NCBI GenBank assembly: GCA_037130265.1
Contig: JBAXTI010000001.1
Location: 235,086-299,085, forward strand
Length of the DNA: 64,000 nucleotides
From: a bacterium
GTDB lineage: Bacteria > Patescibacteriota > Minisyncoccia > Phycocordibacterales > JBBTRF01
Direction of reading: 5' to 3'
Shown: piece after piece, positions 17,007 to 53,250 of the stretch
Layout: each line of letters starts with the position of its first letter
Position numbering within the stretch: position 1 is the stretch's first letter
Program-made: the position numbers and the translations under genes
The notes under the pieces: generated by a model
Told to the model about the DNA's origin: nothing
The model's input: only the letters and a program-made list of their open reading frames with translations
The model's database searches: none

Positions 17007-17340
17007 ATAGGGGTATCGTAACATATTCGAGGAACATCGGCTTCGCCGATTGTGCAATGCTTGTGCACCCAGTAAGGCGGGTTGCGAAACGCAACACCGG
17101 GCCGCCTTGTCTGGTAAGGTGCGGCCCACCGGCCGCTCTATTTCTGTGCACCAATCTCCTCACTTTGCTTCGCTGCGTTCGTCGCTTGGTGCACCCAGTA
17201 GGATTCTCGGCTACCGCCGCGGGTGCTTTTCCATCTCATTTCGCTCCGCTCATTCGATAAGGAAAAGCCTTTCGAATCCTACCCGCAGGCACGCAGGTGC
17301 CTGCTTGGGTGCACTATTCGCTTCACTCCGTTTCGCTCTG

Positions 17341-17413
17341 TGCACCCAGTAGGATTCGAACCTACGACCTACCGCTTAAGAGGCGGATGCTCTACCAACT
17401 GAGCTATAGGTGC
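17341..17413 (-). tRNA. tRNA-Lys (anticodon CTT)
   Basis: Reverse complement GCACCTATAGCTCAGTTGGTAGAGCATCCGCCTCTTAAGCGGTAGGTCGTAGGTTCGAATCCTACTGGGTGCA. Acceptor GCACCTA/TGGGTGC, anticodon loop CTCTTAA, T-arm GTAGG-TTCGAAT-CCTAC. Confidence 0.85.
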
Positions 17414-17518
17414 ATGTCGGGAAAATATAACAGATTTCTGGCTTATTCGCAAGAAAAAAGAACCACCGTCGCTGTGAGCGCCGGTGGTGGTGGGGATACT
17501 CGCTATCGACGTGACGTT

Positions 17519-18145
17519 CTACATAGAGCACCTGTTTATTTCCTGGAAGTGAACGAGGCACTTAAAGGCGTCCCTTGAGAATGCGCATATGGATAGTCGA
17601 AAATCAATCGTGCCATCCGGATTGGTGGTTTGATGGCACGTGTAGGAGAGGTGCCGTGCGTTCACTCCCAACACGAAACAGTGCTGGCTCAGTCCGTCGA
17701 TAATCGTATTCATTTGTGATCGGACTTGCTTGGGAACCGATTCAAACGCGATGTGGTCCGAGCTGATACGGGACTTTTTTGGAGCGACGAAGTATTCGAG
17801 CGCGTCCACAACTCTGTCTGAAAGGAACAGCCGATATCCTTCCGTCCAATTGTCGCTAAACGTTTTTGCGACATTGCGTGCGAGACAGAGGGCGGCGTAA
17901 AACTCTGGACAGAGAAGTGGCGTCCAGGGATTCAGCCGCAATGAAGCGTAGGTGGCGGCGATATCCGTCTGCAGCAACAGGCAAGCAGAGAGTAGCGATG
18001 TAGAGAAGGCGAGGAAGTGCGGTCGGACCACTTTCCATTCCTTTTTCCAACCCTCCATTTCTGCAAGGAAGCTGTCGTGAGTGCGTTGTTCGAGCAATGA
18101 AACAAACAGGCTGAGTAATGTTGGGTGCATGGTGTGTGGCAACAA
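17519..18145 (-). CDS. hypothetical protein between tRNA-Lys and tRNA-Leu(TAA)
   Basis: ORF of 208 aa with no recognisable motifs, flanked by tRNAs on the same strand. Confidence 0.3.
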   Translation of the reverse strand: MLPHTMHPTLLSLFVSLLEQRTHDSFLAEMEGWKKEWKVVRPHFLAFSTSLLSACLLLQTDIAATYASLRLNPWTPLLCPEFYAALCLARNVAKTFSDNWTEGYRLFLSDRVVDALEYFVAPKKSRISSDHIAFESVPKQVRSQMNTIIDGLSQHCFVLGVNARHLSYTCHQTTNPDGTIDFRLSICAFSRDAFKCLVHFQEINRCSM

Positions 18146-23227: not shown

Positions 23228-26026
23228 ATGCCTCCACTCAACCATTTCACTACCAAAGCCAAAGAAGCCATCCGGCGAGCTCATGAGCTCGCTATTGAGC
23301 GCGGACAGAATCATGTAAACCCGATACACCTCCTCATTTCTCTCGTGTTGCAAGAGGAGAGCATGGTGATTTCAATTTTGGATAAATTGGAGGTGGACAC
23401 GGTGCTTTTGACCGATTCTTTGCTCGATGCGATCGAGTCTCCTGATGGCGCCCCAGTGCTTGCGCCGTCATATCAGCTGTATCTCACTCCGGAATTGGCC
23501 CAGGCGATAGAGTCGTCGAGCAAAGTCGCGGCGGCATTGAAGGATGATTTTGTTTCGACTGAACATTTGTTCATCGCGTTACTCGAAGTGCAGGGGACGG
23601 TGAGGGAGATTATTGCAAAGTTCCGTATCGAGAAGGCTGCGGTATTGAAGGTGCTCGAAGAATTGAAGGCGACGAAGCCGAATGAATCGCATGGCCCGAA
23701 GAAGAATAAATTTATTCCTAAATACACTCGCAGCCTCACCAAGCTCGCAGCAGAGAACAAGCTCGATCCAGTAATTGGCCGAGATACTGAGACTTCGCGC
23801 CTGATTCAGATTTTGTCTCGACGTACGAAAAACAACCCGATTTTGATCGGCGAGTCTGGCGTGGGGAAGACCGCGATTGCAGAGGGGCTGGCGTTGCGCA
23901 TGGCGAGCGGGGATGTTCCAGAGTCACTCAAGGACAAGGAGCTCGTGTCGCTTGATCTCGGCTTACTTATCGCCGGTACAAAATACCGAGGTGAATTTGA
24001 AGAGCGTTTGAAGAATATTATGAAGGAGGTGGAGAAGTCGGCTGGGAAGATCATTTTGTTCATCGATGAGATCCACACTATTGTGGGTGCCGGTGCAGCG
24101 GAAGGTTCGATGGATGCATCGAACATGCTAAAGCCCGCGCTCGCTCGCGGCGAGCTTCGCGCGATCGGCGCCACCACGCTCCGCGAGTTTCAGAAACACA
24201 TCGAGAAGGACCCCGCGCTCACGCGACGCTTCCAGCCGGTGTTTGTGAGCGAGCCGAGCGCGGAGGACGCCGTGGCCATTTTGCGTGGACTGAAAGAAAA
24301 ATACGAGATCTTCCACGGCGTCAAAATCAGCGACGAAGCTATCCTCGCGTCGGTCAATTTGAGTACTCGATATATCACCGATCGTTTTTTGCCGGACAAA
24401 GCAATCGACCTCATCGACGAAGCCGCTTCACAGCTGAAAATTTCTCTCGAAAACATGCCACCGGTGCTCGAAGAGACGCGTCGAAAAATCATGCGTTTGC
24501 AGATCGAGCATGAGGCATTGAAGGGCGAAGCAAAGACCAAAAAGACCGCGAAGGCACGATTGAAGGAGATCGACAAAGAGATTGCTGACCTACGTGAGAC
24601 GACTTCGGAATTGGAATTGAAGTGGAAGAATGAAAAGGAAATCATCACTGGCATTAAGACCGCGAAGCACGAGCTCGAAGCATTGCGTCTCGAGGCAGAG
24701 CAGGCAGAGGCGCGTGCCGACCTCGCAAAAGCGGCAGAGATTCGCTATGGCAAAATCCCAGCTGTCGAGAAGGAGCTCGAAAACAAGAGCAAGCGTCTGA
24801 AAAAGCTTCAGACCGGACGACGTATTTTGAAAGAGGAGATTACTGAGTCAGATATCGCTGACATCGTGTCGCGCTGGACGGGTATTCCAGTGAACCGCAT
24901 GCTCGAAGAAGAGATGAAGAAGCTCGCGCGTATGGAGGAGTTTTTGCACAAGCGAATCATCGGCCAGGATGAGGCGGTGAAGAAAATCTCGGACACTATT
25001 AAGCGTTCGCGTGTCGGCATTGCCGATCCCAATCGTCCGATCGGTTCATTCATCTTCCTCGGACCGACCGGTGTGGGCAAGACCGAGCTCACCAAGGCAC
25101 TCGCAGAGTTTATGTTCGACGACGAAAAGGCGTTGCTCCGCGTGGACATGTCTGAATACATGGAAAAGCATTCCGTTTCGAAGATTATCGGCGCACCACC
25201 AGGCTATGTTGGTCACGATGAGGCCAATAGCTTTGCTGAGCAGGTGCGACATCGTCCGTACTCGGTGGTTCTGTTTGATGAAATCGAGAAGGCCCATCCG
25301 GATGTGTTCAATATTTTGCTCCAAGTGCTCGACAATGGGCGACTCACTGACACTAAGGGACGCGTGATCAATTTCAAAAATACGATCATCATCATGACCT
25401 CGAACATCGGCGCGCAATTCATCGACAAGATGGAGCGTATCGGTTTTAGCGGCGGCACTACCGAGAAGCAGCAGTATGAAGACGTGAAGGAAAAAGTGAT
25501 GACGAGCTTGAAGGATTATTTCCGACCAGAATTTTTGAATCGTCTCGATGACGTGTTGGTGTTCGATGTACTTTCACAGGCAGCGATTGGCGACATTGTG
25601 AATATCCAGGTGGAGGTTGTGAAGAAGCGTTTGGCGGAGAAGGAGATCAAGCTCGAGCTCTCGCCGGATGTGTTCGCAGTGCTCGCGAAGGAGGGATACA
25701 ATCCGCAGTATGGCGCGCGTCCATTGAAGCGCTTGATTCAAACCAAGATTTTGACGCCGATTGCATCACTTATGATCGCGCATAACATGATGCGTGGCGG
25801 GACGGTGTTGGTGAAGCTGGTGAGTGGTGCGAGTGCGGGAGCGGCTACGAACAGCACGAAGCCCTCAGCGGAGATTGCTGGCGCTGGCACCGCAACAGCT
25901 GCTATAAGCGAGTTTACGTTTGAGGTGAAGCCGTCGGCTGAAAGTGCGAAGAAGGCGCGCAAGAGCGGGGTGGTGGTTTCTGGAGGCGCCGCTACGCCAG
26001 CAGGGAAGGAGAAGATGGGGGCGTAG
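23228..26026 (+). CDS. clpB: ATP-dependent chaperone ClpB (Hsp100: two AAA+ modules plus a middle coiled-coil) with a low-complexity C-terminal tail
   Basis: Clp N-domain, D1 Walker [16 protein letters not shown], an M-domain coiled-coil ([43 protein letters not shown]), D2 Walker [18 protein letters not shown], and sensor-2 GARPLKR. Confidence 0.9.
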
Positions 26027-26073
26027 TAGAGTGGTTAATTGCGAGAAAAGACTCGAGAGAATATAATTCTCTC

Positions 26074-26865
26074 ATGGCTCGTAAGTGGACAACTGAAGAA
26101 GAAAGCAACCATCGACACGAGCTGAGCGAGTTGTACGAACACGGTAACTTATCTATTGGACAGATCGCAAAGCGGCTCGGCATTGCTCAGCAGACCATTT
26201 TCAAGCGCATTCGTCGGCTCGGTCTCGTGCCTCACCCTGAGCGAAAGTCGAAGTATAGAAATACGCGGAATGACATCCATATCCCAGAAGAATATTCCGA
26301 TGAACTGGCGGAATTTATCGGGATCATGCTTGGGGACGGTCACCTGTCGCACTTTCAGGCGGTGGTTACATTGGGAACGAAAGAGGTTCCCTATGCTCGG
26401 TATGTCCGTAGGCTCATCACGAAGCTTTTTAAAGCAGAGGCGTCAATCTCGATTCGTGCTGACGGATATCGAGATGTATATCTCAGCTCGGTTGTGGTGA
26501 CAAAATGGCTACGGACACACGGTCTCGTTTCAAATAAAGTATTGGGTCAAGTCGCTCCACCAAAATGGATTTTTACGAAGCCTTCTTTCAAAGAGGCTTT
26601 TATAAGGGGAGTGTTCGATACTGATGGGTCCGTATACAAACTTCGTTTTGGCGTGCAAGTCTCATTTTCCAATCGATCCAGGCCGCTGCTCCGGTCTTTA
26701 CAATTAGCCTTAAGGCAATTACAATACACACCATCTGAGATCAGTGGATACCAGTTGTATCTCACGAAGAATTCAGACCTCAGACGCTTTCTGAAGGAGA
26801 TTTGTCCGAGGAATCCGAAGCATGTTCGTCGGTTCAGGCTCTTTCTGAAATCAGTAAAGAAGTAA
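26074..26865 (+). CDS. free-standing HTH plus double-motif LAGLIDADG homing-endonuclease-like protein
   Basis: Two LAGLIDADG motifs are present (AEFIGIMLGDGHLS and FIRGVFDTDGSVYK). The N-terminal HTH is LSIGQIAKRLGIAQQTIFKRIRRLG. The stop at 26865 is 13 nt before the tRNA-Tyr 5' end. Confidence 0.75.
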   Translation: MARKWTTEEESNHRHELSELYEHGNLSIGQIAKRLGIAQQTIFKRIRRLGLVPHPERKSKYRNTRNDIHIPEEYSDELAEFIGIMLGDGHLSHFQAVVTLGTKEVPYARYVRRLITKLFKAEASISIRADGYRDVYLSSVVVTKWLRTHGLVSNKVLGQVAPPKWIFTKPSFKEAFIRGVFDTDGSVYKLRFGVQVSFSNRSRPLLRSLQLALRQLQYTPSEISGYQLYLTKNSDLRRFLKEICPRNPKHVRRFRLFLKSVKK

Positions 26866-26878
26866 GCAGAGAACAGAA

Positions 26879-26963
26879 TGCGCAGGTACTCAAGCGGTCA
26901 ACGAGGACCGGCTGTAAACCGGTTGGCTACGCCTACGGGGGTTCGAGTCCCTCCCTGCGCACC
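26879..26963 (+). tRNA. tRNA-Tyr (anticodon GTA), long variable arm, CCA encoded
   Basis: GCGCAGGTACTCAAGCGGTCAACGAGGACCGGCTGTAAACCGGTTGGCTACGCCTACGGGGGTTCGAGTCCCTCCCTGCGCACCA. Anticodon loop CTGTAAA. Confidence 0.9.
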
Positions 26964-26974
26964 AAAATACAGCA

Positions 26975-26999
26975 AAAAAGCCCTAAAATAGGGCTTTTT
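26975..26999 (+). terminator. rho-independent terminator after tRNA-Tyr
   Basis: aaaagccctaaaatagggcttttttg. Confidence 0.7.
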
Positions 27000-27038
27000 T
27001 GCTGCGTCAGTTCAAGTTATTGAACCATTACGGCTCTA

Positions 27039-30341: not shown

Positions 30342-30357
30342 TTGGTATAATTGAATA

Positions 30358-31019
30358 GTGAAGAAGAAAACTGAGCAACAAAAAGCGGCCCGAATCTTGC
30401 GAAAAAAGGGGTATTCGATGTCGGAGATCGCTGTCAAATTAATGGTGTCGCAAAGCTCTATATCTCTATGGACAAAGGACATTATGCTTTCTCCGGTGGC
30501 GCAAAAGAGAATCCATTCCATTGTCCTTTCAAGAAGAGAGACCGTGTCGAACACATTAAGAAGGAAGAAAAGGAATCGACTGGAACTAGCTGATAGTGTT
30601 GCAGCTGGGGAAATGCACCTTGGGGTATCTTCTTTGCGTCCGAATATGTTTTCGGTACTCGCCATGATCTATTTTTGTGAAGGAAATAAAATGATAGTAA
30701 TGTTGGTTTCACTAATTCTGATCCGGAATTAATGCGACTTTTCATTCAGTTATTGAGAAAATGTTTCTCTTTGGATGAGTCGAAGTTCAGGGCCTGTCTG
30801 CACGCTCATGACTATCATGATATCGAAAGGCAGAAAGCGTTTTGGTCTGAGGTGACGAATATTCCGCTGAAACAGTTTACAAAAACCTATAACAAGAAAA
30901 GCGCTCACGTATTCAAAAAACCAGGATATCAAGGGTGTCTGAGGATAAATTACTACGACGCGCACGTGGCGCGCGTGCTTCTGGCGTTTGCAAAAAAGCT
31001 CATGAAACACTATAGTTAA
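30358..31019 (+). pseudogene. frameshifted paralog of the HTH plus LAGLIDADG-like endonuclease family (same family as 46144-46854)
   Basis: Two ORFs (30358-30732 and 30732-31019) in adjacent frames together align along the full length of the 46144 protein. The HTH GYSMSEIAVKLMVSQSSISLWTKD matches TYSEILEAVPVARSTLSLWLRG. MIYFCEGNK matches LYWAEGSK. NDSNVGFTNSDPELMRLFIQLL matches NPGSGTYFSNTDLRMLQVF. YDAHVARVLLAF matches YYGCLRVKV. The frame switch maps to the A-rich run ggaaataaaatg at about 30685-30695. Confidence 0.65.
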
Positions 31020-31027
31020 TCCTCGAA

Positions 31028-31101
31028 GGGCGATTAGGTAAGTGGTATACCGGCGGACTCCAAACCCGCATTCGGAGGTCCGATTCCTCCATCGCCCGCC
31101 A
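31028..31101 (+). tRNA. tRNA-Trp (anticodon CCA), CCA encoded; slightly atypical T-loop (TCCGATT)
   Basis: GGGCGATTAGGTAAGTGGTATACCGGCGGACTCCAAACCCGCATTCGGAGGTCCGATTCCTCCATCGCCCGCCA. Acceptor GGGCGAT/ATCGCCC, D-stem GGTA/TACC, anticodon loop CTCCAAA, T-arm GGAGG-TCCGATT-CCTCC. It begins 8 nt after the pseudogene's stop. Confidence 0.7.
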
Positions 31102-46124: not shown

Positions 46125-46143
46125 TTTTTGATATAATTGACGA

Positions 46144-46854
46144 ATGCACAATGCGGCATCGTATCCTCTGTTCAAGACGAGGGCCGTGCAGCTTCGTCTG
46201 GAAGGAAAAACATATAGTGAAATCCTAGAGGCTGTGCCTGTGGCAAGGTCGACACTTTCGCTTTGGCTAAGAGGCACTTCTTTGGCGGAACCGCAGAAGC
46301 AAAGATATACCGAAAAGAAGCGCCTAGCCGCTTTGAGAGGCGGACAAAAAAGAAAGCAGGACCGGATCGATATCACCAAGACTATTTTTGAAAAGTGCCG
46401 CAGCGATATTTCCATGATCACGACGAGAGAGCTATGGCTCATCGGGATTTCGCTGTATTGGGCAGAAGGGTCGAAGCAAAAAGAGTACAATCCCGGCTCA
46501 GGTACATATTTTTCTAATACTGATTTGAGAATGTTGCAAGTATTTGTCGCTTGGTTGGAGCGATGCGTTGGTATCCAATCTGAGGATATTTCTTACGACC
46601 TTTTCTTACACGAGACTGCGCGGAAAAAGTTGCTCGAAGTCGAAACGTATTGGAGAAGCGGACTGAATATTACGCGAGATCAGCAGTTCAGTGTGTATTG
46701 GAAACGGACTCAGATACGGACGAGCAGGCGCAACATTGGCGACTTGTATTATGGGTGTCTTCGGGTTAAAGTAAGGGCGAGTTCGTCGTTGAATCGAGCA
46801 CTTGCCGGCTGGGCTGATGCGATTACTGGTGCTGTCTGTTGTCACGAGATATAG
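46144..46854 (+). CDS. HTH plus LAGLIDADG-like (single degenerate motif) endonuclease-like protein
   Basis: The N-terminal HTH is TYSEILEAVPVARSTLSLWLRG. WLIGISLYWAEGSK resembles a LAGLIDADG helix, with Glu at the acidic position. It is paralogous to the 30358-31019 pseudogene. The stop at 46854 is 14 nt before tRNA-Gln. Confidence 0.55.
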   Translation: MHNAASYPLFKTRAVQLRLEGKTYSEILEAVPVARSTLSLWLRGTSLAEPQKQRYTEKKRLAALRGGQKRKQDRIDITKTIFEKCRSDISMITTRELWLIGISLYWAEGSKQKEYNPGSGTYFSNTDLRMLQVFVAWLERCVGIQSEDISYDLFLHETARKKLLEVETYWRSGLNITRDQQFSVYWKRTQIRTSRRNIGDLYYGCLRVKVRASSSLNRALAGWADAITGAVCCHEI

Positions 46855-46868
46855 TGTTTCCAATTTTT

Positions 46869-46939
46869 TGGGGGATCGTCTAATGGTAGGACATCAGGTT
46901 TTGGTCCTGAGTATCGGGGTTCGAGTCCCTGTCCCCCAG
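46869..46939 (+). tRNA. tRNA-Gln (anticodon TTG)
   Basis: TGGGGGATCGTCTAATGGTAGGACATCAGGTTTTGGTCCTGAGTATCGGGGTTCGAGTCCCTGTCCCCCAG. U1-A72 and G73 match the bacterial Gln identity set. Anticodon loop TTTTGGT. Confidence 0.85.
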
Positions 46940-47024
46940 CAGTCTAGTTTAGTTCTGAACGACCAAGAGGGGTCAGAACAAACAGATATCTATACCGTCA
47001 TCGCATACCTGCTGAGAGCAGTAT

Positions 47025-47052
47025 TCAAGACAAAAAATCACCGATACAAGTC
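47025..47052 (+). terminator. rho-independent terminator downstream of tRNA-Gln
   Basis: aatcaccgatacaagtcggtgatt followed by ttttg. Confidence 0.65.
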
Positions 47053-47093
47053 GGTGATTTTTTGTTAAGATAAGATGGATTAATTGATTATGT

Positions 47094-47675
47094 ATGTCAG
47101 AAAATACCTGGAAAGAATACTTCGAAAGAACAAAAGATAGTAAACCTAGACCTCTACTTGTTAAGGCAGTGGATTTGGTGGTGGACAAAAATGAAGCACT
47201 TGATTTGGGCTCGGGTGCTTTTAATGATGTTAGATACTTGGTTTCGAAAGGTTTTAAACATATTACAGCTGTAGACAGTAAACCGATAGCTCAAGGTATC
47301 ATTCAGAATTTTCCGACAGAAATTGTCTCATATATTATCAGTTCTTTTGAGAATTTTGATTTTGTTGAAAACAAATATGATCTTATAAATGCTCAATACT
47401 CTCTACCATTTAACCCAGAGAATACTCTTGAAAGAGTTTTCAAATCAATCACTTCTTCTCTTAAAGATGGAGGGATACTCACAGGTCAATTTTTTGGAAC
47501 TAAAGATGAATGGAATGTTGAAGGCCATAAAATGAATTTTCAAACTCGCGAACAAGCAGAAAAATTACTAAGTGGTTTAGAAGTTATTGATTTTCAAGAA
47601 GAGGAGGAAGATAGAAAAACAGCAAAGGGAGATATGAAGCATTGGCACGTTTTCCATTTTATAATAAAAAAATAA
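47094..47675 (+). CDS. class I SAM-dependent methyltransferase (island cargo)
   Basis: Motif I ALDLGSGAFNDVRYLVSKGFKHITAVD. Small MTase fold, possibly TehB-like. Confidence 0.55.
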   Translation: MSENTWKEYFERTKDSKPRPLLVKAVDLVVDKNEALDLGSGAFNDVRYLVSKGFKHITAVDSKPIAQGIIQNFPTEIVSYIISSFENFDFVENKYDLINAQYSLPFNPENTLERVFKSITSSLKDGGILTGQFFGTKDEWNVEGHKMNFQTREQAEKLLSGLEVIDFQEEEEDRKTAKGDMKHWHVFHFIIKK

Positions 47676-47676
47676 T

Positions 47677-48171
47677 ATGGAAATAAAAACTCAAATAACA
47701 AATAGTAGAGGAAAAGTTTTCGATACTATATATAAAGATGGAGATCCTGAAACAGATTTAGAAAATAGTGTTATACACGGTGTTCATTCATTTTGCTTTT
47801 ATAAAGATAAGATGGTTATAGTTTCAAATTCAAGAAAAGAGTGGACTCCTCCTGGTGGCGGTATTGAACCTGGAGAGAATTATAAAGAAGCATCTATCCG
47901 TGAAATAAAAGAGGAAGCAAACATGAAAGTTCTTCACCAAGAGTGCATTGGTTACCAAGACGTTTGGATATCGGATGAAAACAGGATGGTAAGGCAGGTA
48001 CGAATGTTTTGTATAGTTGAACCATATGGAGATTTTGAGAAAGATCCTGATGGAGATATTTTAGAAATAAAACTGATTGATCCAAAAGATTATAAAGAAT
48101 ATATAAAATGGGGAGAAATCGGAGATCATTTGATGGGAAGAGCTTTAGAGCTTAGTCAAAAAATAAAATGA
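47677..48171 (+). CDS. NUDIX hydrolase (island cargo)
   Basis: Nudix box GGGIEPGENYKEASIREIKEEANM (Gx5Ex7REUxEExGU). Confidence 0.75.
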   Translation: MEIKTQITNSRGKVFDTIYKDGDPETDLENSVIHGVHSFCFYKDKMVIVSNSRKEWTPPGGGIEPGENYKEASIREIKEEANMKVLHQECIGYQDVWISDENRMVRQVRMFCIVEPYGDFEKDPDGDILEIKLIDPKDYKEYIKWGEIGDHLMGRALELSQKIK

Positions 48172-48812
48172 AACTTATTTTTCAATATAATAAAGAAAAA
48201 GATATTTGGTGCATCCTTAACAAAGGAAAAAGTTCTAATAATTCTCCAATTCCTACTAAAGTATATGAAGAACTTGTGGCAACATGCGGAGAAAATCCTT
48301 CGGCGGATTCCACATCTTCTTTTGTAAATAAATACTTTTTAGATAAAAACATAAAAGTAAATGAATATATAGAAAAATATCAGAGGGACTGGTATAGCAT
48401 TACAGAGAAATATCAAAAAAGAGCAGAGTCAGTGTTTGGAGTTTCATTACCGAGCGACATTGTTGTGTATCTTACGATTAATAATAGATGTCCATACAAC
48501 ATAGAAGATAATTACTTTTTTGTGACAATTCCTGCTTCTTCAGTTAGAAGAACAATAATGCACGAATTGTGGCATTTCTATATGTGGTACGGGCTAGGAG
48601 CAGATCAAGAAGAAAAATTAGGAAAGCAAAAGTATAATGATTTAAAAGAGGCTTTGACTGTATTGCTCAACGTGGAATGTAAAGATTTACTGCCAGAAGG
48701 GGTATATGATGGCGGTTATCCACAACATAAGGAAGTGAGAGAAGAAATTTTAGAATATTGGTCAAAAAATAAAAATATCAAGGATCTTTGGAAATATTTA
48801 CAGACAAAATAA
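48168..48812 (+). CDS. hypothetical protein with an HExxH motif (island cargo)
   Basis: IMHELWHFYMW contains HExxH. There is no other recognisable similarity. Confidence 0.35.
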   Translation: MKLIFQYNKEKDIWCILNKGKSSNNSPIPTKVYEELVATCGENPSADSTSSFVNKYFLDKNIKVNEYIEKYQRDWYSITEKYQKRAESVFGVSLPSDIVVYLTINNRCPYNIEDNYFFVTIPASSVRRTIMHELWHFYMWYGLGADQEEKLGKQKYNDLKEALTVLLNVECKDLLPEGVYDGGYPQHKEVREEILEYWSKNKNIKDLWKYLQTK

Positions 48813-48813
48813 T

Positions 48814-49581
48814 ATGGACATCGATAAACACAAAAAACAATTCGGTAATCAAGCAGAAAACTATACTAAGTATAGAAAACCATATACTGAAAAGTTATAT
48901 GAGCTTCTTTTCTCCTTAGCTCCTGGAAAAAAGATTCTAGATATAGCTTGTGGTACAGGTAAATCTACAGAACCGATGGTCAGAAGCGGAACGGAAGTTA
49001 TAGGATGTGATCACGATCCACTGATGATTGCAGAAGCTATTAAGCAGGCTGAGATTAAAAGCTCACCTATTAAATACATTGTTGCAGATGTTGAACATTT
49101 ACCATTTGAAGATTCAAACTTTGATGTAGTAACTGTAGGCACGGCATTTCATTGGTTTGTAAATGAAAAGTCTGTTACAGAAATAAAACGAGTACTTAAG
49201 GAAAAGGGTTTATTTTTTATTTTTTGGACTCTTACCACTAAAGATGTACCTGAAGAAGATTCCATCCCAGGAAGTTTCTATAAAACATTCAATTGGGATA
49301 AAGTTCCACCTGAATTAAGAAATTTAGATTATATTTCAAATTTCTTCAAAGAGCAGGGATTCCAGAATGTTAACACCGCAAGAATTCCATTTAGTCACAA
49401 TGATACCGTCGAAGAACAAGTAGGACTAATGAAAACAGCTTCAAGTTACGAGATTCTATCAGATAGTGAAAAAGAACGATTTATCAGAGAGTTAACTGAA
49501 CTTCTTACAACTAAATTAGGTAATAGACCCTACTTCACTTACGAAGAGGAAATACAGGTGTGTTATGGGTTCAAGAAATAA
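48814..49581 (+). CDS. class I SAM-dependent methyltransferase (island cargo)
   Basis: Motif I ILDIACGTGKSTEPM, then post-I GCDHD, then VTVGTAFHWF. Confidence 0.65.
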   Translation: MDIDKHKKQFGNQAENYTKYRKPYTEKLYELLFSLAPGKKILDIACGTGKSTEPMVRSGTEVIGCDHDPLMIAEAIKQAEIKSSPIKYIVADVEHLPFEDSNFDVVTVGTAFHWFVNEKSVTEIKRVLKEKGLFFIFWTLTTKDVPEEDSIPGSFYKTFNWDKVPPELRNLDYISNFFKEQGFQNVNTARIPFSHNDTVEEQVGLMKTASSYEILSDSEKERFIRELTELLTTKLGNRPYFTYEEEIQVCYGFKK

Positions 49582-49598
49582 TCATATAAAGTAATTAT

Positions 49599-50585
49599 AT
49601 GGAGTCAGTTTTACAAAAAATAACGGAAGAATATAACCTCAATTTTAAAGTTCTTGATAAGGTTACTCAAGGTTTTTTAAGTGATAATTATATTCTTGCT
49701 GATGGTCAAAAGAAGTATTTTCTTAAGAAATATAGGTTTAAAAATAAAGAACGAATGAGTGAGGTACATTCTGCGAAAAGATATTTCTTCGAAGGTGGTA
49801 TTCCAGTAATTATGCCCTTGCTCACAGATTCAGATGAAAGCTTTTTTGAACATAATGGGAGTTTTTATGCCCTCTTTCCTTTCATATTAGACCATCAACT
49901 TAAACCAGATGAAATCACTAAAGACGCGATTGTTTCTCTTGGAGAAACTCTTGCTCGACTACATCTTCGAGGAAAAGAAAGTAAACTTAAAATAAATGAA
50001 TTTTTCAGACCATGGGATAAAGAAGAGCGAATGAGAGGAATCAATCAAATTCTCGAAAAGATCTCACTCATAGAAAACAAAACCGATTTTGATATTCAAG
50101 CCGAAAAGAACATCTTGCTCAAGAAATCAGTTATTGAATCAAATAATCGAACATATGAATCTTTTAACTTTCTTAATGATCACCTCATTCACGGCGATTA
50201 CATGATAGGAAATGTATTTTTTGATGACCAGAACAATGTATCCAATGTGTTTGATTTTGAAAAAACAGAATATGCACCTAGATTTTTTGAGCTGTTTCGT
50301 TCAATGATATATACAACTTTCTTTGATGAAAATATTACGGAAGAGACTTTGGCTAATACAAAACTCTATCTCGATTCATATTTGAATATATATCCTATGT
50401 CAAAAGAGGAATTGGATGATGCTTTTACAGCATATTATATCAACAGATCTCACTCTTACTGGGTGGAAGCTGAGCATTATCTTAGAGGGAATACGAGAGC
50501 TGATGAACTTCTTGAAAGTGATATTGCACGCATGAATTATTTTTCAGAGAATTTTGAAGTATTAAAGAAGTATCTTATAGAATAG
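49599..50585 (+). CDS. aminoglycoside-phosphotransferase/choline-kinase-fold (APH-like) kinase (island cargo)
   Basis: Brenner motif HGDYMIGNVFFDD and a downstream DFE (VFDFEKTEYAP) are present. Length and layout fit small-molecule kinases of the APH/ChoK/HSK-II family. Confidence 0.6.
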   Translation: MESVLQKITEEYNLNFKVLDKVTQGFLSDNYILADGQKKYFLKKYRFKNKERMSEVHSAKRYFFEGGIPVIMPLLTDSDESFFEHNGSFYALFPFILDHQLKPDEITKDAIVSLGETLARLHLRGKESKLKINEFFRPWDKEERMRGINQILEKISLIENKTDFDIQAEKNILLKKSVIESNNRTYESFNFLNDHLIHGDYMIGNVFFDDQNNVSNVFDFEKTEYAPRFFELFRSMIYTTFFDENITEETLANTKLYLDSYLNIYPMSKEELDDAFTAYYINRSHSYWVEAEHYLRGNTRADELLESDIARMNYFSENFEVLKKYLIE

Positions 50586-51918
50586 TAATAAGTTTCTCTT
50601 TCAGAATAATCTTACTCTTTAAACATCCCAGTAAATCTCTTTTTTCAAATATTGATCCTTCGGTTAGTAAATACCTAGCGTAGTTTCTAATGTCAGCATC
50701 TTTCGCTTGATAGTTTTCTTCAGTCTTACCCATTATTCCAGAATGAAATTTCTTATGTCTCTCTATTTCGATTTCCAACTTCTTTTTAAGACCAGATTTG
50801 TCTAGATCAATCCTATCTATCATTTCTAGTAATTGTGATATTAAAACTTTTTCTTCAATGTAGCCTTCTTTGCAATGAATATTTTTAGATCGAGTACAAC
50901 CATAGTATATATACTTTGCTATCGTTCCATCTTTTAGATTCTTATACTTTTCCTGTGCAGTTACTCCTGATCCACATACTCCACAAGTAAGCATCCGAGT
51001 AAATGCAAACTCTTTATTTTTTTCAGTCGATTTTATTTGTAAATGTAATTGTTTTTGTGCCGCATCAAACAAATCTTTTGATATGAGTGGAGTATGTTTA
51101 CCTTGAAACCATCTACCACTTAATTTTGGGTATTCAAAAGTGCCATGATAAAAGTGATTATCTAAAATAGTGTAGACATTACTTAGGGTTAGAGGCTTTC
51201 CATTTCTGGATAGGAATTTAATCTCTCGTAACCATTTATATACTTTTCTGCCACTCCAACTCTCATATCCGACTTTCGTAAACATTTCTTTGATAATTGA
51301 GCTTCTGTCTGGATCTACTAATACTACGCCCGGCTTGTCTCTGTCTTTAGAATTTAAGTAGCCAGTAGGAGCGACACTCGGCCAAAGTCCCATTTCACAT
51401 TTTGTTTTGAGTCCTCGTTTTACATTAATGCTTTTATTGTCGTTCTCAAGTTTGGCTTGTGATCCGAGAATCATGAGTAGAAATTTCTCATTTGGATTGT
51501 TTGTAAATCTTTGGCTATGAGTCCGTATCTCAATTAACTTTTTCTGATCTAGTAAGTCTACTAATGATCCAAGATCTCCAGCATTTCTGCTTAAACGATC
51601 TGGATGCCACACAAGTATTCCATCAAACTTTCCATTCCTAATATCTGTAAGAAGTTTGTTGTATACCGGTCTTTGCCCGCAATCTTTTGCTGAATGGGAT
51701 TCTCTATAAATCTCTAGAATATTGAGGTTATCCCTTTGGGCAATGTTGAGCATCTCTTTAACCTGAGAATCTACTGACAAAGCCTGCCTTTCCTCGGCTT
51801 CGCTTGATTTACGGGCATACTCATTAACAGATGAGTCTCTACCAAATGAAAAAAGATTCAGCAAAAACTGTCCTGTGCTACGGAGACTCAAACACGTGGG
51901 GTTCAAAATAATCTTCAT
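50575..51918 (-). CDS. large serine recombinase (resolvase/invertase catalytic domain, recombinase domain and Zn-ribbon)
   Basis: N-terminal ARKSSEAEERQALSVDSQ (catalytic Ser region), GILVWHPDRLSRN, then a recombinase domain and CGVCGS...YYGCTRSK...HC zinc ribbon. Confidence 0.75.
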   Translation of the reverse strand: MKIILNPTCLSLRSTGQFLLNLFSFGRDSSVNEYARKSSEAEERQALSVDSQVKEMLNIAQRDNLNILEIYRESHSAKDCGQRPVYNKLLTDIRNGKFDGILVWHPDRLSRNAGDLGSLVDLLDQKKLIEIRTHSQRFTNNPNEKFLLMILGSQAKLENDNKSINVKRGLKTKCEMGLWPSVAPTGYLNSKDRDKPGVVLVDPDRSSIIKEMFTKVGYESWSGRKVYKWLREIKFLSRNGKPLTLSNVYTILDNHFYHGTFEYPKLSGRWFQGKHTPLISKDLFDAAQKQLHLQIKSTEKNKEFAFTRMLTCGVCGSGVTAQEKYKNLKDGTIAKYIYYGCTRSKNIHCKEGYIEEKVLISQLLEMIDRIDLDKSGLKKKLEIEIERHKKFHSGIMGKTEENYQAKDADIRNYARYLLTEGSIFEKRDLLGCLKSKIILKEKLITIL

Positions 51919-51972
51919 GAAGGATTCGATAGTGCCTTGCCCAGTGAACCATCGTTCACCTATAATAGGTGA

Positions 51973-53250
51973 GTGAATCAGTCGACGAAAAATGCCGCGT
52001 CCGCGACTGCGCCAAAAATTGCCGTCTCAAAAACCCTCCTCCACATCGACGGGGATGCGTTTTTTGTGGGCGTTGAGGTGGCGAAGAATCCGAAGCTCAA
52101 AGGTCTGCCGGTGGTGACTGGCGAGGAGCGCGGGATCGTATCGGCGCTGTCGTACGAAGCCAAGGCGCTCGGGGTTATTCGTGGCATGCCAATTTTCAGG
52201 CTGAAAAAAGAATTTCCGCAGGTCATCATCCTGCCCGGCGACTACGCGTCGTATGTGCGGTATTCGCAGCTGATGTTCGACATCGTCCGCCGATACGCCG
52301 ATGATGTCGAGGAATACAGTATCGATGAATGCTTCGCCGACCTCACTGGCCTGGATCGACCGCTGAAAATGACGTATTTGCAAATGGCCCAGCGGATCAA
52401 GAAAGAGATCACCGAAGAGCTCGGCCTGTCGGTGTCTATTGGCCTCGCGCCCACCAAGGTGCTCGCGAAAGTCGCGTCGAAATGGGTGAAGCCCAATGGT
52501 CTCACTGTGATTGGCTGTGAGACAGCGCCCGACTTCCTCGAAAATACGCCGATAGAAAAAATCTGGGGGATTGGGCCGCGAACCTCCGAGCTTTTGAAAC
52601 GAAAGGGAATACACACCGCCGGTGATTTTGCTCGCAAAGAATTGTCGTGGTTGCAAGTGCATCTGTCGAAGCCGTATCTGACTATTTGGCAGGAACTGAA
52701 TGGTATTTCCGTCGTACCCATCGACCCGGAGAAAAAGACCACCTATTCCTCGATACAAAAGACGAGGTCGTTTCATCCGAGCACCAACGACACAACATTT
52801 CTCATCTCGCAGCTCTCGAAACACATCGAGGATGCCTGTGCAAAAGCTCGGCACTTCAAGCTTGCACCGAAGAAGGTATCTTTTTTCCTGAAGTCGAAAG
52901 ATTTTGTGTATTCCAATCACACCGTCACGCTCGCATCGCCGACCAATGCACCGGAAATCATCGTGTCGCTAGCCGTGAAGGAATTTCAAAAGATCTACGC
53001 CAAACGAACCCTGTATCGCACCACCGGAGTGACGCTTCACGACTTGGTACCGTCGGGTGCGCATCAAGCAGACTTGTTTGGTGGGAGTGAGATGGCCAAC
53101 AAGCTCGAGGCGATTCATGGCCGGATCGACATGCTCGAAGACAAATTCGGCAAACGCACCGTGTATTTGGCTTCGACCCACAACGCACTCCAACAAAAGG
53201 CGGGTGGTACCGATGCGGATGATTTGGATCGGGATTTGTTGTTTTTGTAA
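51973..53250 (+). CDS. dinB: DNA polymerase IV (Y-family)
   Basis: LLHIDGDAFFVGVEV, SIDECFADLTG, LSVSIGLAPTKVLAKVAS, IWGIGPRTSELLKRKGIHTAGD. Confidence 0.8.
   Translation: MNQSTKNAASATAPKIAVSKTLLHIDGDAFFVGVEVAKNPKLKGLPVVTGEERGIVSALSYEAKALGVIRGMPIFRLKKEFPQVIILPGDYASYVRYSQLMFDIVRRYADDVEEYSIDECFADLTGLDRPLKMTYLQMAQRIKKEITEELGLSVSIGLAPTKVLAKVASKWVKPNGLTVIGCETAPDFLENTPIEKIWGIGPRTSELLKRKGIHTAGDFARKELSWLQVHLSKPYLTIWQELNGISVVPIDPEKKTTYSSIQKTRSFHPSTNDTTFLISQLSKHIEDACAKARHFKLAPKKVSFFLKSKDFVYSNHTVTLASPTNAPEIIVSLAVKEFQKIYAKRTLYRTTGVTLHDLVPSGAHQADLFGGSEMANKLEAIHGRIDMLEDKFGKRTVYLASTHNALQQKAGGTDADDLDRDLLFL

Follow-up and report, generated by a model that had tools for sequence, protein, structure and literature searches.

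Nuclease-like genes directly upstream of three tRNA genes

The window, i.e. the whole 64,000-nt (64-kb) stretch of DNA that was analysed, comes from an ultra-small bacterium of the Patescibacteria and contains three tRNA genes that each have a nuclease-like ORF directly on their 5′ side (ORFs A, B and C; Table 1). The tRNAs are uninterrupted, ordinary and high-scoring with ARAGORN and Rfam, and each of them was seen once in the readable stretches (the 64 kb here and at most ~3 kb on each side of the gene in GTDB relatives). A search of the whole 64-kb window with Rfam at gathering thresholds recovered tRNAs only, with no group I/II intron and no other structured RNA. In the preliminary description, the first gene ended 13 nt before tRNA-Tyr; the adjacency holds, and the measured gap is 14 nt, since the stop codon of ORF A ends at 26865. 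The strong terminator described behind this tRNA was recovered as a terminator-like hairpin, which could terminate in both directions because it is flanked by A and T runs, and the same layout was confirmed at tRNA-Trp and tRNA-Gln. A fourth unit at tRNA-Lys was considered and rejected, as the upstream ORF (17519–18145, minus strand) is not nuclease-like; the window survey yielded three units only. ORFs A, B and C have in common the arrangement of a TATAAT hexamer, 6 nt and the start codon. For ORF B, the promoter scan returned no −35 box matching the −10, and the −10 of ORF C begins 8 nt past the stop codon of the upstream gene dnaX.

Table 1 Features of the three gene–tRNA units in the window
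Feature	Position	Strand	Description
Ghost	26017–26043	+	Truncated remnant of the 5′ region of an earlier tRNA-Tyr gene, with acceptor-like GGGGGCG followed by the D-arm TAGAGTGGTTAATTGC; read from sequence
Promoter-like site of ORF A	26039–26067	+	−35 TTGCGA (26039–26044), 17-nt spacer, −10 TATAAT (26062–26067); 10/12 consensus matches
ORF A	26074–26865	+	HTH and double-motif LAGLIDADG endonuclease-like protein, 263 aa
Promoter-like element in ORF A	26697–26725	+	TTTACA, 17 nt, TACAAT; codons S208-L209-Q210 and L216-Q217-Y218
tRNA-Tyr (GTA)	26880–26964	+	Complete, CCA encoded; ARAGORN; Rfam 53.9 bits
Terminator-like hairpin	26969–27005	.	17-bp stem between A and T runs
−10 of ORF B	30346–30351	+	TATAAT, 6 nt 5′ of GTG; read from sequence
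ORF B	30358–31019	+	GTG start; 8-nt gap to tRNA-Trp
Promoter-like site near tRNA-Trp	30988–31016	+	TTGCAA, 17 nt, TATAGT; last codons of ORF B, ends 11 nt before tRNA-Trp
tRNA-Trp (CCA)	31028–31101	+	ARAGORN, Rfam
−10 of ORF C	46132–46137	+	TATAAT, 6 nt 5′ of ATG; read from sequence
ORF C	46144–46854	+	ATG start, 236 aa; 14-nt gap to tRNA-Gln
tRNA-Gln (TTG)	46869–46940	+	ARAGORN, Rfam

Two protein families

ORF A carries two LAGLIDADG motifs and domains in agreement with a pseudo-dimeric alpha-beta-beta-alpha-beta-beta-alpha fold, and its acidic residues D88 (in MLGDG) and D184 (in DTDG) are invariant in 29/29 aligned homologues. It has its own start codon, no extein context and no Rfam intron, so that its first description as a free-standing HTH plus double-LAGLIDADG gene outside any intron or intein is upheld. 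By fold and catalytic residues, ORF A is predicted to belong to the LAGLIDADG homing endonuclease family and to cleave DNA. WhiA is a LAGLIDADG-derived transcription factor that has a C-terminal HTH and has lost the catalytic acidic residues, and ORF A could alternatively be a domesticated, immobile regulator of this kind, which would bind the tRNA gene or the tRNA remnant and −35 box upstream and control both itself and tRNA-Tyr. The HTH domain of ORF A, its strong purifying selection (dN/dS 0.086/1.86, about 0.05, against the L001 homologue) and its constant length across classes would suit such a role. However, its HTH is N-terminal, it keeps both Asp residues, and the WhiA model TIGR00647 reached 14.3 bits, below its cut-off of 44.1, with the Pfam WhiA models likewise under theirs. 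Considering these together with the distribution described below, we regard a WhiA-like regulator as unlikely.

Members of the ORF A family are 47–58% identical, are spread over several Patescibacteria classes and always occupy one site, and this conservation would fit an old vertically inherited insertion with a host function too. Among the best 80 loci, in a sample that is biased towards intact genes, a decayed copy was found in L066 only. A scan of IMG/VR with the ORF A alignment returned generic LAGLIDADG genes at 23–30% identity and zero members of the ORF A family; with no such gene on phage contigs, a phage origin of ORF A was rejected.

ORFs B and C represent a different, large family with an HTH and a domain, here termed YWAEG, for which Pfam has no model; its signature is YFCEGNK in ORF B and LYWAEGSK in ORF C. 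Placing A and C in one family was tried and discarded, as the profile–profile comparison aligned the HTH alone. ORF B is split by a −1 frameshift within a run of A residues (30688–30691) into ORFs 30358–30732 and 30732–31019; its 93% identical homologue in L225 has A5 in place of A4 and an intact ORF of 220 aa, and intact homologues measure 216–222 aa. Its dN/dS (0.066/0.735, about 0.09) indicates purifying selection. The repaired ORF B aligned with the ORF C family in hhalign at a probability of 99.6% (E 4.5e-24). In the ORF C family, which numbers 5,642 cluster representatives at E ≤1e-3, residues Y105, W106, A107, E108, G109 and K111 are invariant.

No significant match to the Pfam LAGLIDADG models was obtained for ORFs B and C, and weak scores appeared in 1/27 members of their family (E 0.13) and in a tRNA-Tyr-linked relative (E 0.049). 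The hhalign comparison of the ORF C domain with domain 2 of ORF A was non-significant (E 0.026) yet gave a sensible alignment, in which YWAEGS is paired with FDTDGS and FSNSD..MI..WL with FTNxSxPLL..ML. Foldseek and hmmsearch against PDB with the YWAEG family found nothing. These resemblances weakly suggest a LAGLIDADG nature for ORFs B and C, and the YWAEG domain is possibly a single divergent LAGLIDADG-like domain that acts as a dimer. Because of the missing Pfam match, endonuclease is a putative name for these two ORFs. The profile searches suggested in the preliminary description supported a LAGLIDADG assignment for ORF A and gave no significant match for ORFs B and C. Of the three endonuclease-then-tRNA units, the first stands as described, the second and third contain members of the other family with an inferred nuclease label, and the second is frameshifted in the assembly.

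tRNA partners, tRNA-Tyr remnants and promoters in related loci

In other genomes, tRNA-Tyr lies directly 3′ of ORF A in 78 of the 80 best-matching loci, the remaining 2 being cut by a contig end, and the association extends over at least 300 species genomes. The stop codon of ORF A falls within tRNA-Tyr in 63/78 loci, and in 28/78 it is a UAA formed by the anticodon bases U35 and A36 plus A37. The family of ORF C is followed by tRNA-Gln in 3/3 relatives examined, with 42/120 ORF C homologues ending in a peptide encoded by the 5′ end of tRNA-Gln, and the family of ORF B is followed by tRNA-Trp in L005, L149, L151 and L225. The pairing of protein family with tRNA identity is strict, i.e. A with Tyr, B with Trp and C with Gln. 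Both the conserved gene-then-tRNA layout in relatives and an adjacency beyond chance, on which the preliminary description depended, were thus borne out at all 78 testable ORF A loci and by the family-specific tRNA partners. In compact Patescibacteria genomes, ordinary genes also abut tRNAs (miaA, rbfA and genes for small membrane proteins), and the three units might accordingly be unrelated HTH genes brought before tRNAs by chance or by an ordinary operon neighbourhood. The survey of related loci refutes this explanation and leaves it a negligible probability, given the constant adjacency with family-specific tRNAs, the overlap of ORF and tRNA, and the tRNA remnant and synonymous constraint described below.

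Other nuclease genes were found at the same position in relatives. PD-(D/E)XK genes of PF11645 (I-Ssp6803I family) lie 3–9 nt before tRNA-Tyr in 4 loci, and in L164 a GIY-YIG gene overlaps tRNA-Tyr and is accompanied by a perfect 16-nt ghost. Another LAGLIDADG_3 gene occurs at tRNA-Cys, HNH genes at tRNA-Leu and tRNA-Thr, and a DUF559 gene at tRNA-Lys. A function at the RNA level, as a maturase or processing factor for the adjacent pre-tRNA or as a tRNA-acting nuclease, would explain the linkage by action in cis; each family is bound to one tRNA identity, the ORF overlaps the tRNA on a shared transcript, and some LAGLIDADG proteins are RNA maturases. We consider this very improbable, because the tRNAs are uninterrupted and ordinary, the same tRNAs are made in most related genomes without these genes, the PD-(D/E)XK, GIY-YIG and HNH families at this position are DNA nucleases, and the ghost is a scar of rearrangement at the DNA level.

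Within the ghost upstream of ORF A, the preceding ClpB-like gene has its stop codon (26024–26026). The ghost motif, GAGTGGTCAATTGCA, corresponds to positions about 8–26 of nuclease-free tRNA-Tyr genes and was found 5′ of ORF A in 43/78 loci, against 0.1 expected (≤3 mismatches), usually 29–32 nt before the ATG and with a fixed junction; the insertion junction and the ghost are alike in distant lineages. The −35 box of ORF A (TTGCGA) sits inside the ghost D-arm, a 9-bp inverted repeat (26054–26074) brackets the −10, and a −10-like hexamer ends 6–7 nt before the start codon in 56/78 related ORF A loci. As the ATG lies only 6 nt past the −10, the ORF A mRNA, judged from this predicted transcription start, looks leaderless. 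Outside the ORF A units, the ghost was seen at the GIY-YIG locus L164 and, as a borderline case, in L145; none rose above background at the B, C or PD-(D/E)XK units. Beside nuclease-free tRNA-Tyr genes no ghost scar was found, and the few motif matches there fall in the ClpB coding sequence. No 3′ tRNA remnant was found downstream of the A-linked tRNA-Tyr in 76 loci. A whole tRNA as cassette cargo was therefore rejected, the duplication being of the 5′ part only, as was an integrase-type integrative element, for which a recombinase between ghost and tRNA-Tyr is also missing.

The tRNA-Tyr gene in the window has the D-arm CTCAAGCGGTCAACGAG, which differs from that of the ghost. The ghost-type D-arm is carried by 52/75 nuclease-free tRNA-Tyr genes and by 5/78 A-linked ones; within a matched acceptor class the latter proportion is 2/34 (Fisher p = 2e-10, with kinship ignored). 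The D-arm TACTCAAG, found beside ORF A in the window and in nine other loci, is also present in 14 nuclease-free loci. A ghost-type tRNA-Tyr allele is found, for example, in L173 or L193 (GCGTCGGTGGTAGAGCGGTCAATTAC...). Of the two ideas in the preliminary description, a tRNA-targeting selfish element is favoured over a domesticated nuclease or maturase because a 5′ fragment of an older tRNA-Tyr lies upstream and the functional tRNA has a different D-arm; the suggestion that the element carries its own tRNA copy has to be narrowed to the 5′ part of the tRNA.

The promoter-like element inside ORF A lies 154 nt upstream of tRNA-Tyr. At the same codon positions, 65/78 ORF A loci have a site with ≥9/12 matches, 115–155 nt before tRNA-Tyr, and the codon for Leu209 is TTA in 61/62 loci, compared with 11–21 of ~75 at other conserved Leu positions. 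This synonymous-codon constraint suggests that the element is a probable promoter for tRNA-Tyr. A tRNA-proximal promoter was detected in 22/98 nuclease-free loci against 6/78 A-positive loci, and in the latter it is apparently replaced by the constrained site within the ORF, an arrangement that would minimise the cost of the insertion. At the second unit, the promoter-like stretch 30988–31016 is 100% conserved in L225, in an alignment that is 93% identical overall. With these promoter-like elements in ORF A and before tRNA-Trp, expression of the tRNAs is probably independent of the nuclease promoter, and the proposed co-transcription of gene and tRNA stands only in part.

ORF A was present at 1/85 independently sampled tRNA-Tyr loci, a sample that comprises genes with the acceptor GCGTCGGT among the first 120 matches listed. 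Empty sites with the synteny of the window (ClpB, then tRNA-Tyr) were found in L106, L173 and L193, so that this site exists both with and without the gene, in a patchy spread, as is typical of a mobile gene. On a tree of a 300-aa ClpB segment, loci with ORF A are intermingled with loci lacking it (24 Fitch changes, null mean 29); a Mantel test on the same segment gave a weak but significant correlation between ORF A and ClpB divergence (r = 0.28), which holds at short range. This co-divergence would be in line with the WhiA-like regulator introduced above, as would the conservation of the ghost D-arm beyond the −35 hexamer, reminiscent of an operator, and the tRNA promoter within the ORF, which implies long co-adaptation. 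On the other hand, ORF A is absent at 84/85 of the sampled loci among the matches listed, including close ClpB relatives, and hence is not needed for the expression of tRNA-Tyr; moreover, four or five unrelated nuclease families share the position, which a regulator model does not predict.

A single early entry into tRNA-Tyr of Patescibacteria, followed by vertical descent with many losses and no homing today, could likewise account for the identical junction and ghost in distant lineages, the constant locus with ClpB synteny in A-positive and A-negative loci alike, the correlated divergence and the lack of phage-borne copies in IMG/VR. A gene that no longer homes should decay, however, and the low dN/dS (~0.05), the invariant catalytic residues and the intactness of nearly all copies argue otherwise, as do the near-random spread on the ClpB tree and the independent arrival of several other nuclease families in this niche. 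Such a relic of an ancient invasion is, in our estimation, improbable.

A putative homing cassette on the 5′ side of tRNA genes

The three units are best explained as free-standing homing-endonuclease cassettes that reside 5′ of tRNA genes on the chromosome and are, or were until recently, active, and we hold this explanation with moderate confidence. For ORF A, DNA cleavage at the proposed target, immunity of the carrier, recombinational homing and tRNA release by RNase P are inferred, as are the transcription start sites. The nuclease would recognise a nuclease-free tRNA-Tyr gene with the D-arm GAGTGGTCAATTGC and cut it near position 25–27, and repair templated by a cassette-bearing copy would insert the cassette, i.e. 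a spacer with the −10, the nuclease ORF, the embedded tRNA promoter and the first ~26 positions of the tRNA in recoded form. The left-hand homology available for such repair is ~25 nt, which is short for RecA-type repair. The old 5′ part would stay upstream as the ghost, a half-site that is no longer cleavable and whose TTGCRA would provide the nuclease gene with its −35 box. The rebuilt tRNA-Tyr, having a different D-arm, would be immune to the nuclease. RNase P would free the tRNA by 5′ processing from a long leader of nuclease coding sequence, and since ordinary processing removes this leader, the host would suffer no loss; leader processing would take the role that splicing has for intron-borne nucleases. 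In the second and third units, the other family would have docked likewise before tRNA-Trp and tRNA-Gln, without a ghost.

More tentatively, and with somewhat less than even confidence, the 5′ flank and leader of tRNAs in Patescibacteria may be a general refuge, previously unrecognised, of homing endonuclease genes, where the cut tRNA is rebuilt with a recoded immune 5′ segment, the tRNA promoter is hidden in coding sequence, RNase P stands in for splicing, and the stop codon is borrowed from the tRNA, often as the Tyr-anticodon UAA with A37. If so, the same transcript would be subject to competition between nuclease translation and tRNA maturation, and the HTH–YWAEG family of 5,600 clusters would be a new homing-endonuclease family, possibly of very divergent single-domain LAGLIDADG proteins.

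A literature search found no paper on a nuclease-gene-then-tRNA layout. The statement that no system with this layout had been described is upheld to that extent, and has to be qualified by a conceptual precedent, SegB of phage T4, a free-standing homing endonuclease that is encoded in a tRNA gene cluster, recognises tRNA gene sequence and is co-inherited with flanking tRNA markers (PMC2330249). SegB is the closest precedent for the three units, as in both cases a free-standing nuclease ORF lies among tRNA genes. For free-standing homing endonucleases it is generally accepted that carriers are immune through differences in the target sequence, and this logic matches the D-arm contrast between A-linked and nuclease-free tRNA-Tyr. 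SegB, however, is a phage-borne GIY-YIG enzyme, whereas the units here are located on bacterial chromosomes and contain an HTH plus LAGLIDADG protein as the main enzyme, beside a novel second family. Unlike SegB, the ORF here lies against or overlaps with a particular tRNA, a truncated tRNA 5′ ghost upstream is reused as the −35, the tRNA promoter lies inside the ORF, and the association spans at least 300 species genomes.

Homing endonucleases are also known from introns, for example I-Ssp6803I (PF11645) in a tRNA-fMet intron and LAGLIDADG enzymes in rRNA introns of CPR bacteria. Intron-borne enzymes of tRNA and rRNA genes share with the window units their families (LAGLIDADG, PD-(D/E)XK, HNH and GIY-YIG), target class and phylum, as well as the logic of exploiting a conserved gene that is essential without burdening the host. 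They differ in that the units here have no intron or ribozyme by Rfam and leave the tRNAs uninterrupted, and their neutrality would stem from the rebuilt tRNA 5′ part and 5′-leader processing instead of splicing. Integrase islands and prophages resemble the ORF A unit in tRNA gene insertion, partial tRNA duplication and the functional tRNA left behind. These elements duplicate the 3′ end of the tRNA, are bounded by att repeats and use tyrosine or serine recombinases, whereas the ORF A unit duplicates the 5′ part and carries a single nuclease gene as cargo. A 2026 survey of tRNA introns in Patescibacteria describes HNH genes inside introns, and nuclease genes lying 5′ of tRNAs go unmentioned in the searched passages of that survey (PMC13011429).

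The unit layout seems to be an undescribed arrangement in which selfish homing nuclease genes reside next to an essential gene and not within an intron. The persistence of homing endonucleases is usually ascribed to their hiding in inteins or self-splicing introns or, in phages, in intergenic gaps; the proposed cassettes would represent a third strategy on bacterial chromosomes, namely docking 5′ of a tRNA, rebuilding it and relying on leader processing to remove the cost. If this is true, a large nuclease-like family without a Pfam model would be defined, and it would offer candidate rare-cutting enzymes whose natural tRNA targets can be read from filled and empty alleles. It would also bear on gene exchange in reduced, episymbiotic bacteria, and the embedded constrained promoter would be a clean natural case of dual-use coding sequence. 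Hundreds of Patescibacteria genomes contain genes annotated as "LAGLIDADG family homing endonuclease" or as "hypothetical protein", and a class of these annotations would be accounted for as well. As a separate observation on annotation, gene-calling programs routinely prolong these ORFs so that they reach into the tRNA.

Gene-tRNA units in the window and their conservation

Eight tRNAs were identified by ARAGORN in the window, a segment of a Patescibacteria (CPR) chromosome, and three of the eight have a same-strand ORF starting with an HTH directly upstream. ORF A, an HTH plus double-motif LAGLIDADG endonuclease-like gene, precedes tRNA-Tyr, while ORFs B and C, which combine an HTH with a YWAEG domain, precede tRNA-Trp and tRNA-Gln. 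The preliminary description had proposed this layout of three ORF-then-tRNA units, which stands; the gap of 13 nt that it gave between ORF A and tRNA-Tyr is corrected in the table below. All three ORFs share a TATAAT located 6 nt before the start codon; the promoter scan placed a -35 box (TTGCGA) with a 17-nt spacer before ORF A, and a terminator-like hairpin of 17 bp lies 3' of tRNA-Tyr. The window contains no intron, since an Rfam search of it returned tRNAs only; a maturase role is considered very unlikely.

Features in the window (window coordinates)
Feature	Position	Downstream tRNA	Gap	Remark
tRNA-Lys(CTT) 3'-end repeats	17050-17420			minus strand
ClpB-like AAA+ gene	23228-26026			last codons and stop inside the tRNA-Tyr fragment
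Truncated tRNA-Tyr 5' fragment ("ghost")	26017-26043			contains the ClpB stop codon
9-bp inverted repeat	26054-26074
ORF A	26074-26865	tRNA-Tyr from 26880	14 nt
Promoter-like site inside ORF A	26697-26725
ORF of 392 aa	27473-28651			immediately downstream of the tRNA-Tyr unit; no Pfam match at E ≤1e-5
ORF B	30358-31019	tRNA-Trp from 31028	8 nt
ORF C	46144-46854	tRNA-Gln from 46869	14 nt
Low-GC stretch	47000-52000			right after the tRNA-Gln unit

Homologues of ORF A were found in Paceibacteria, Kaiser-, Nomura-, Brenner- and Woesebacteria and similar MAGs. When one genome per GTDB species was scanned with a sequence pattern, at least 300 genomes proved to have an ORF A relative, and in 78 of the best 80 loci tRNA-Tyr(GTA) lies directly downstream on the same strand, the remaining two ending at a contig edge; chance is barely conceivable as an explanation. 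The family usually has no stop codon of its own: the stop falls within tRNA-Tyr in 63/78 loci, and 28 of those 63 ORFs terminate at a UAA that consists of U35 and A36 of the anticodon together with A37. The unusual but conserved C termini of annotated homologues (...DSGYSRRL, ...RRYPSG and ...QAVNEDRL) are thereby accounted for. In several genomes the gene sits between tRNA-Thr(TGT) and tRNA-Tyr, which form a gene cluster in many bacteria. In the three ORF C relatives examined, tRNA-Gln follows the gene after 4-5 nt, and dnaX lies upstream in two of the three, as in the window; a C-terminal ...W/C-G-I/V-V, the translated 5' end of tRNA-Gln, ends 42 of 120 ORF C homologues. Relatives of ORF B abut or overlap tRNA-Trp (L005, L149, L151 and L225). 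Among public proteins of the A and C families, gene callers run the ORFs into the tRNA, and many database entries carry tRNA-Tyr or tRNA-Gln 5' translations as C-terminal peptides (RRSDSGYSRRL, RRYPSG and YWGIV); some ORF A homologues are named WhiA.

A tRNA-Tyr fragment and predicted promoters

The motif (G)TAGAGTGGTCAATTGCAA occurs upstream of ORF A family genes in 43/78 loci (≤3 mismatches), whereas shuffling gave an expectation of 0.1; between its 3' end and the ATG there are typically 29-32 nt. In L028, L044 and L063 it continues leftwards into GCGTCGG, the usual tRNA-Tyr acceptor strand, and its similarity to nuclease-free tRNA-Tyr genes covers about position 8 to about position 26, where the D-arm ends, and goes no further. 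The motif is a truncated 5' fragment of tRNA-Tyr, here called the ghost, and is read as a scar left by insertion. A 3' tRNA remnant was looked for downstream of the intact A-linked tRNA-Tyr and not found, and the duplication is therefore limited to the 5' part. The TTGCRA of the ghost is the predicted -35 box for the nuclease gene. In 56/78 loci a -10-like hexamer is separated from the start codon by 6-7 nt, which implies leaderless mRNAs for the ORF A family. In the window, a 9-bp inverted repeat (GAGAGAAT-ATA-ATTCTCTC) flanks the -10 box and reaches the ORF A ATG. The repeat recurs in the closest relative (L001), is missing from less closely related loci, and may be an operator specific to this lineage.

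Promoters were predicted by consensus, and the one inside ORF A is also backed by codon constraint. A promoter-like site ending 9-11 nt upstream was found at 22/98 nuclease-free tRNA-Tyr genes versus 2 in controls, and at just 6/78 A-linked ones. Inside 65 of the 78 ORF A family genes lies TTTACA, 17 nt and TA(G/C)(A/G)AT, coinciding with the fixed codons S208-L209-Q210 and L216-x-Y218, and its -10 ends 115-155 nt before the tRNA. The Leu209 codon is TTA in 61/62, whereas at ten other conserved Leu positions TTA accounts for 11-21 of about 75; the third base of codon 208 is T in 68/78, and Leu216 is xTA in 69/75. Such constrained synonymous sites are best explained by a functional tRNA promoter embedded in the nuclease ORF. 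In ORF B, TTGCAA, 17 nt and TATAGT stop 11 nt short of tRNA-Trp, and L225 has this site without any change. The linked tRNAs thus probably owe their transcription both to read-through and to the predicted inner promoters; either route would give the tRNA a 5' leader of nuclease coding sequence, presumably removed by RNase P.

Occupancy of tRNA-Tyr genes and origin of the units

JGI metagenome contigs were scanned for tRNA-Tyr genes that have the acceptor GCGTCGGT, whatever genes lay next to them, yielding at least 120 loci; occupancy counts cover the 85 listed loci with ≥850 nt upstream and refer to this single acceptor type. Among these listed matches, the ORF A family is present at 1/85, a B/C-type gene abuts tRNA-Tyr in 3/85 (a fourth, L123, is slightly under the 850-nt cut-off), a PD-(D/E)XK gene of PF11645, the family that includes intron-encoded I-Ssp6803I, lies 3-9 nt upstream in 4/85 (L108, L134, L136 and L222), and a GIY-YIG gene overlaps tRNA-Tyr in 1/85 (L164) and has upstream of it a ghost that matches the tRNA 5' end perfectly over 16 nt. 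A wider survey, covering every tRNA of the fetched loci (395 in total), revealed an HTH-less LAGLIDADG_3 gene overlapping tRNA-Cys (L175), HNH genes at tRNA-Leu(TAA) and tRNA-Thr(CGT) (L145 and L148), and a DUF559 endonuclease at tRNA-Lys (L212). Empty sites with the window synteny, in which ClpB is followed after 10-56 nt by tRNA-Tyr, occur in the nuclease-free L106, L173 and L193. The D-arm of the ghost is exact in 52/75 nuclease-free tRNA-Tyr genes among the matches listed versus 5/78 A-linked ones; within the same acceptor class it is found in 2/34 A-linked genes (Fisher p = 2e-10, a statistic that ignores kinship).

Linkage of ClpB to tRNA-Tyr extends over about 90 loci, A-positive and A-negative, across many Patescibacteria; the ClpB gene either immediately precedes the tRNA on its strand or lies on the other strand, about 1-4 kb downstream. 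In the ClpB tree (trees were built on about 300 aa), A-positive and A-negative loci are intermixed, with 24 parsimony changes versus a null mean of 29, and ORF A and ClpB divergence correlate only weakly (r = 0.28); repeated homing and a single early gain followed by numerous losses both fit these data. The dN/dS of ORF A (about 0.05) indicates strong purifying selection. As rival readings, a domesticated WhiA-like regulator and a vertically inherited relic of one old invasion both appear unlikely. The simplest account, which we favour with some reserve, would be a free-standing homing-endonuclease cassette aimed at the tRNA gene itself. It would explain the intact LAGLIDADG catalytic residues, the fixed junction inside tRNA-Tyr and the old half-site left, the rebuilt tRNA with a different D-arm, the empty alleles and patchy occurrence, as well as the strong purifying selection and the fact that no fewer than four other nuclease families occupy this position.

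The closest precedent is SegB of T4, a free-standing homing endonuclease of the GIY-YIG type that is encoded in a phage tRNA cluster and recognises tRNA gene sequence (PMC2330249). The intron-borne nucleases of bacterial tRNA and CPR rRNA genes belong to the same nuclease families as those here, but need a ribozyme. Upstream nuclease genes are not reported in the searched passages of a 2026 survey of Patescibacteria tRNA introns (PMC13011429), and a full-text literature search found no description of a nuclease gene docked upstream of a tRNA. The units are therefore viewed as probable free-standing homing endonucleases, a known kind of enzyme, that occupy a new niche and show new features: the predicted reuse of the ghost as a -35 box, the putative embedded tRNA promoter, the tRNA-borrowed stop codon and a large new family.

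ORFs B and C and the 3' side of the tRNAs

ORFs B and C represent a family distinct from ORF A. With one A restored in the run at 30688-30691, ORF B aligns to the C family with a probability of 99.6%. Its relative L225, 93% identical and likewise neighboured by tRNA-Trp and VanW, has an A5 run and an intact 220-aa ORF, so that ORF B is either a pseudogene of very recent date or a product of faulty assembly; a dN/dS of 0.09 shows that selection acted on the gene until recently. The C family comprises 5,642 clusters at 50% identity, has no Pfam model and carries an invariant LYWAEGxK motif at a helix end. The LAGLIDADG-like nature earlier ascribed to ORFs B and C is thus a hypothesis, not a result. 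Six B/C-superfamily proteins (P0288, P0289, P0308, P0311, P0313 and P0374) are 420-576 aa long with 2-4 profile matches each, and are either fused tandem copies or merged gene calls. LAGLIDADG enzymes have followed a homodimer-to-monomer route, which fused tandem copies would echo. A third B/C (YWAEG) branch abuts or overlaps tRNA-Tyr in L123, L177, L194 and L218; in two of these loci the UAA of the anticodon loop again serves as the stop of the ORF, and the linked tRNA-Tyr has the D-arm TACCCAAG or TACTCAAG, not the ghost type.

Right after the tRNA-Gln unit, GC falls from about 0.53 to 0.32-0.41, and the first ORF of this low-GC stretch is a methyltransferase. In relatives with an identical C protein, the DNA 3' of tRNA-Gln differs between samples and often carries a large serine recombinase; this tRNA thus seems to have a hot spot for integration on its 3' side, with the nuclease-like gene on its 5' side. 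The 3' end of tRNA-Lys(CTT) (AATCCTACTGGGTGCAC) is repeated twice more within about 300 nt downstream. These repeats resemble a stack of att-type remnants, left by elements that had inserted at this end of the tRNA.
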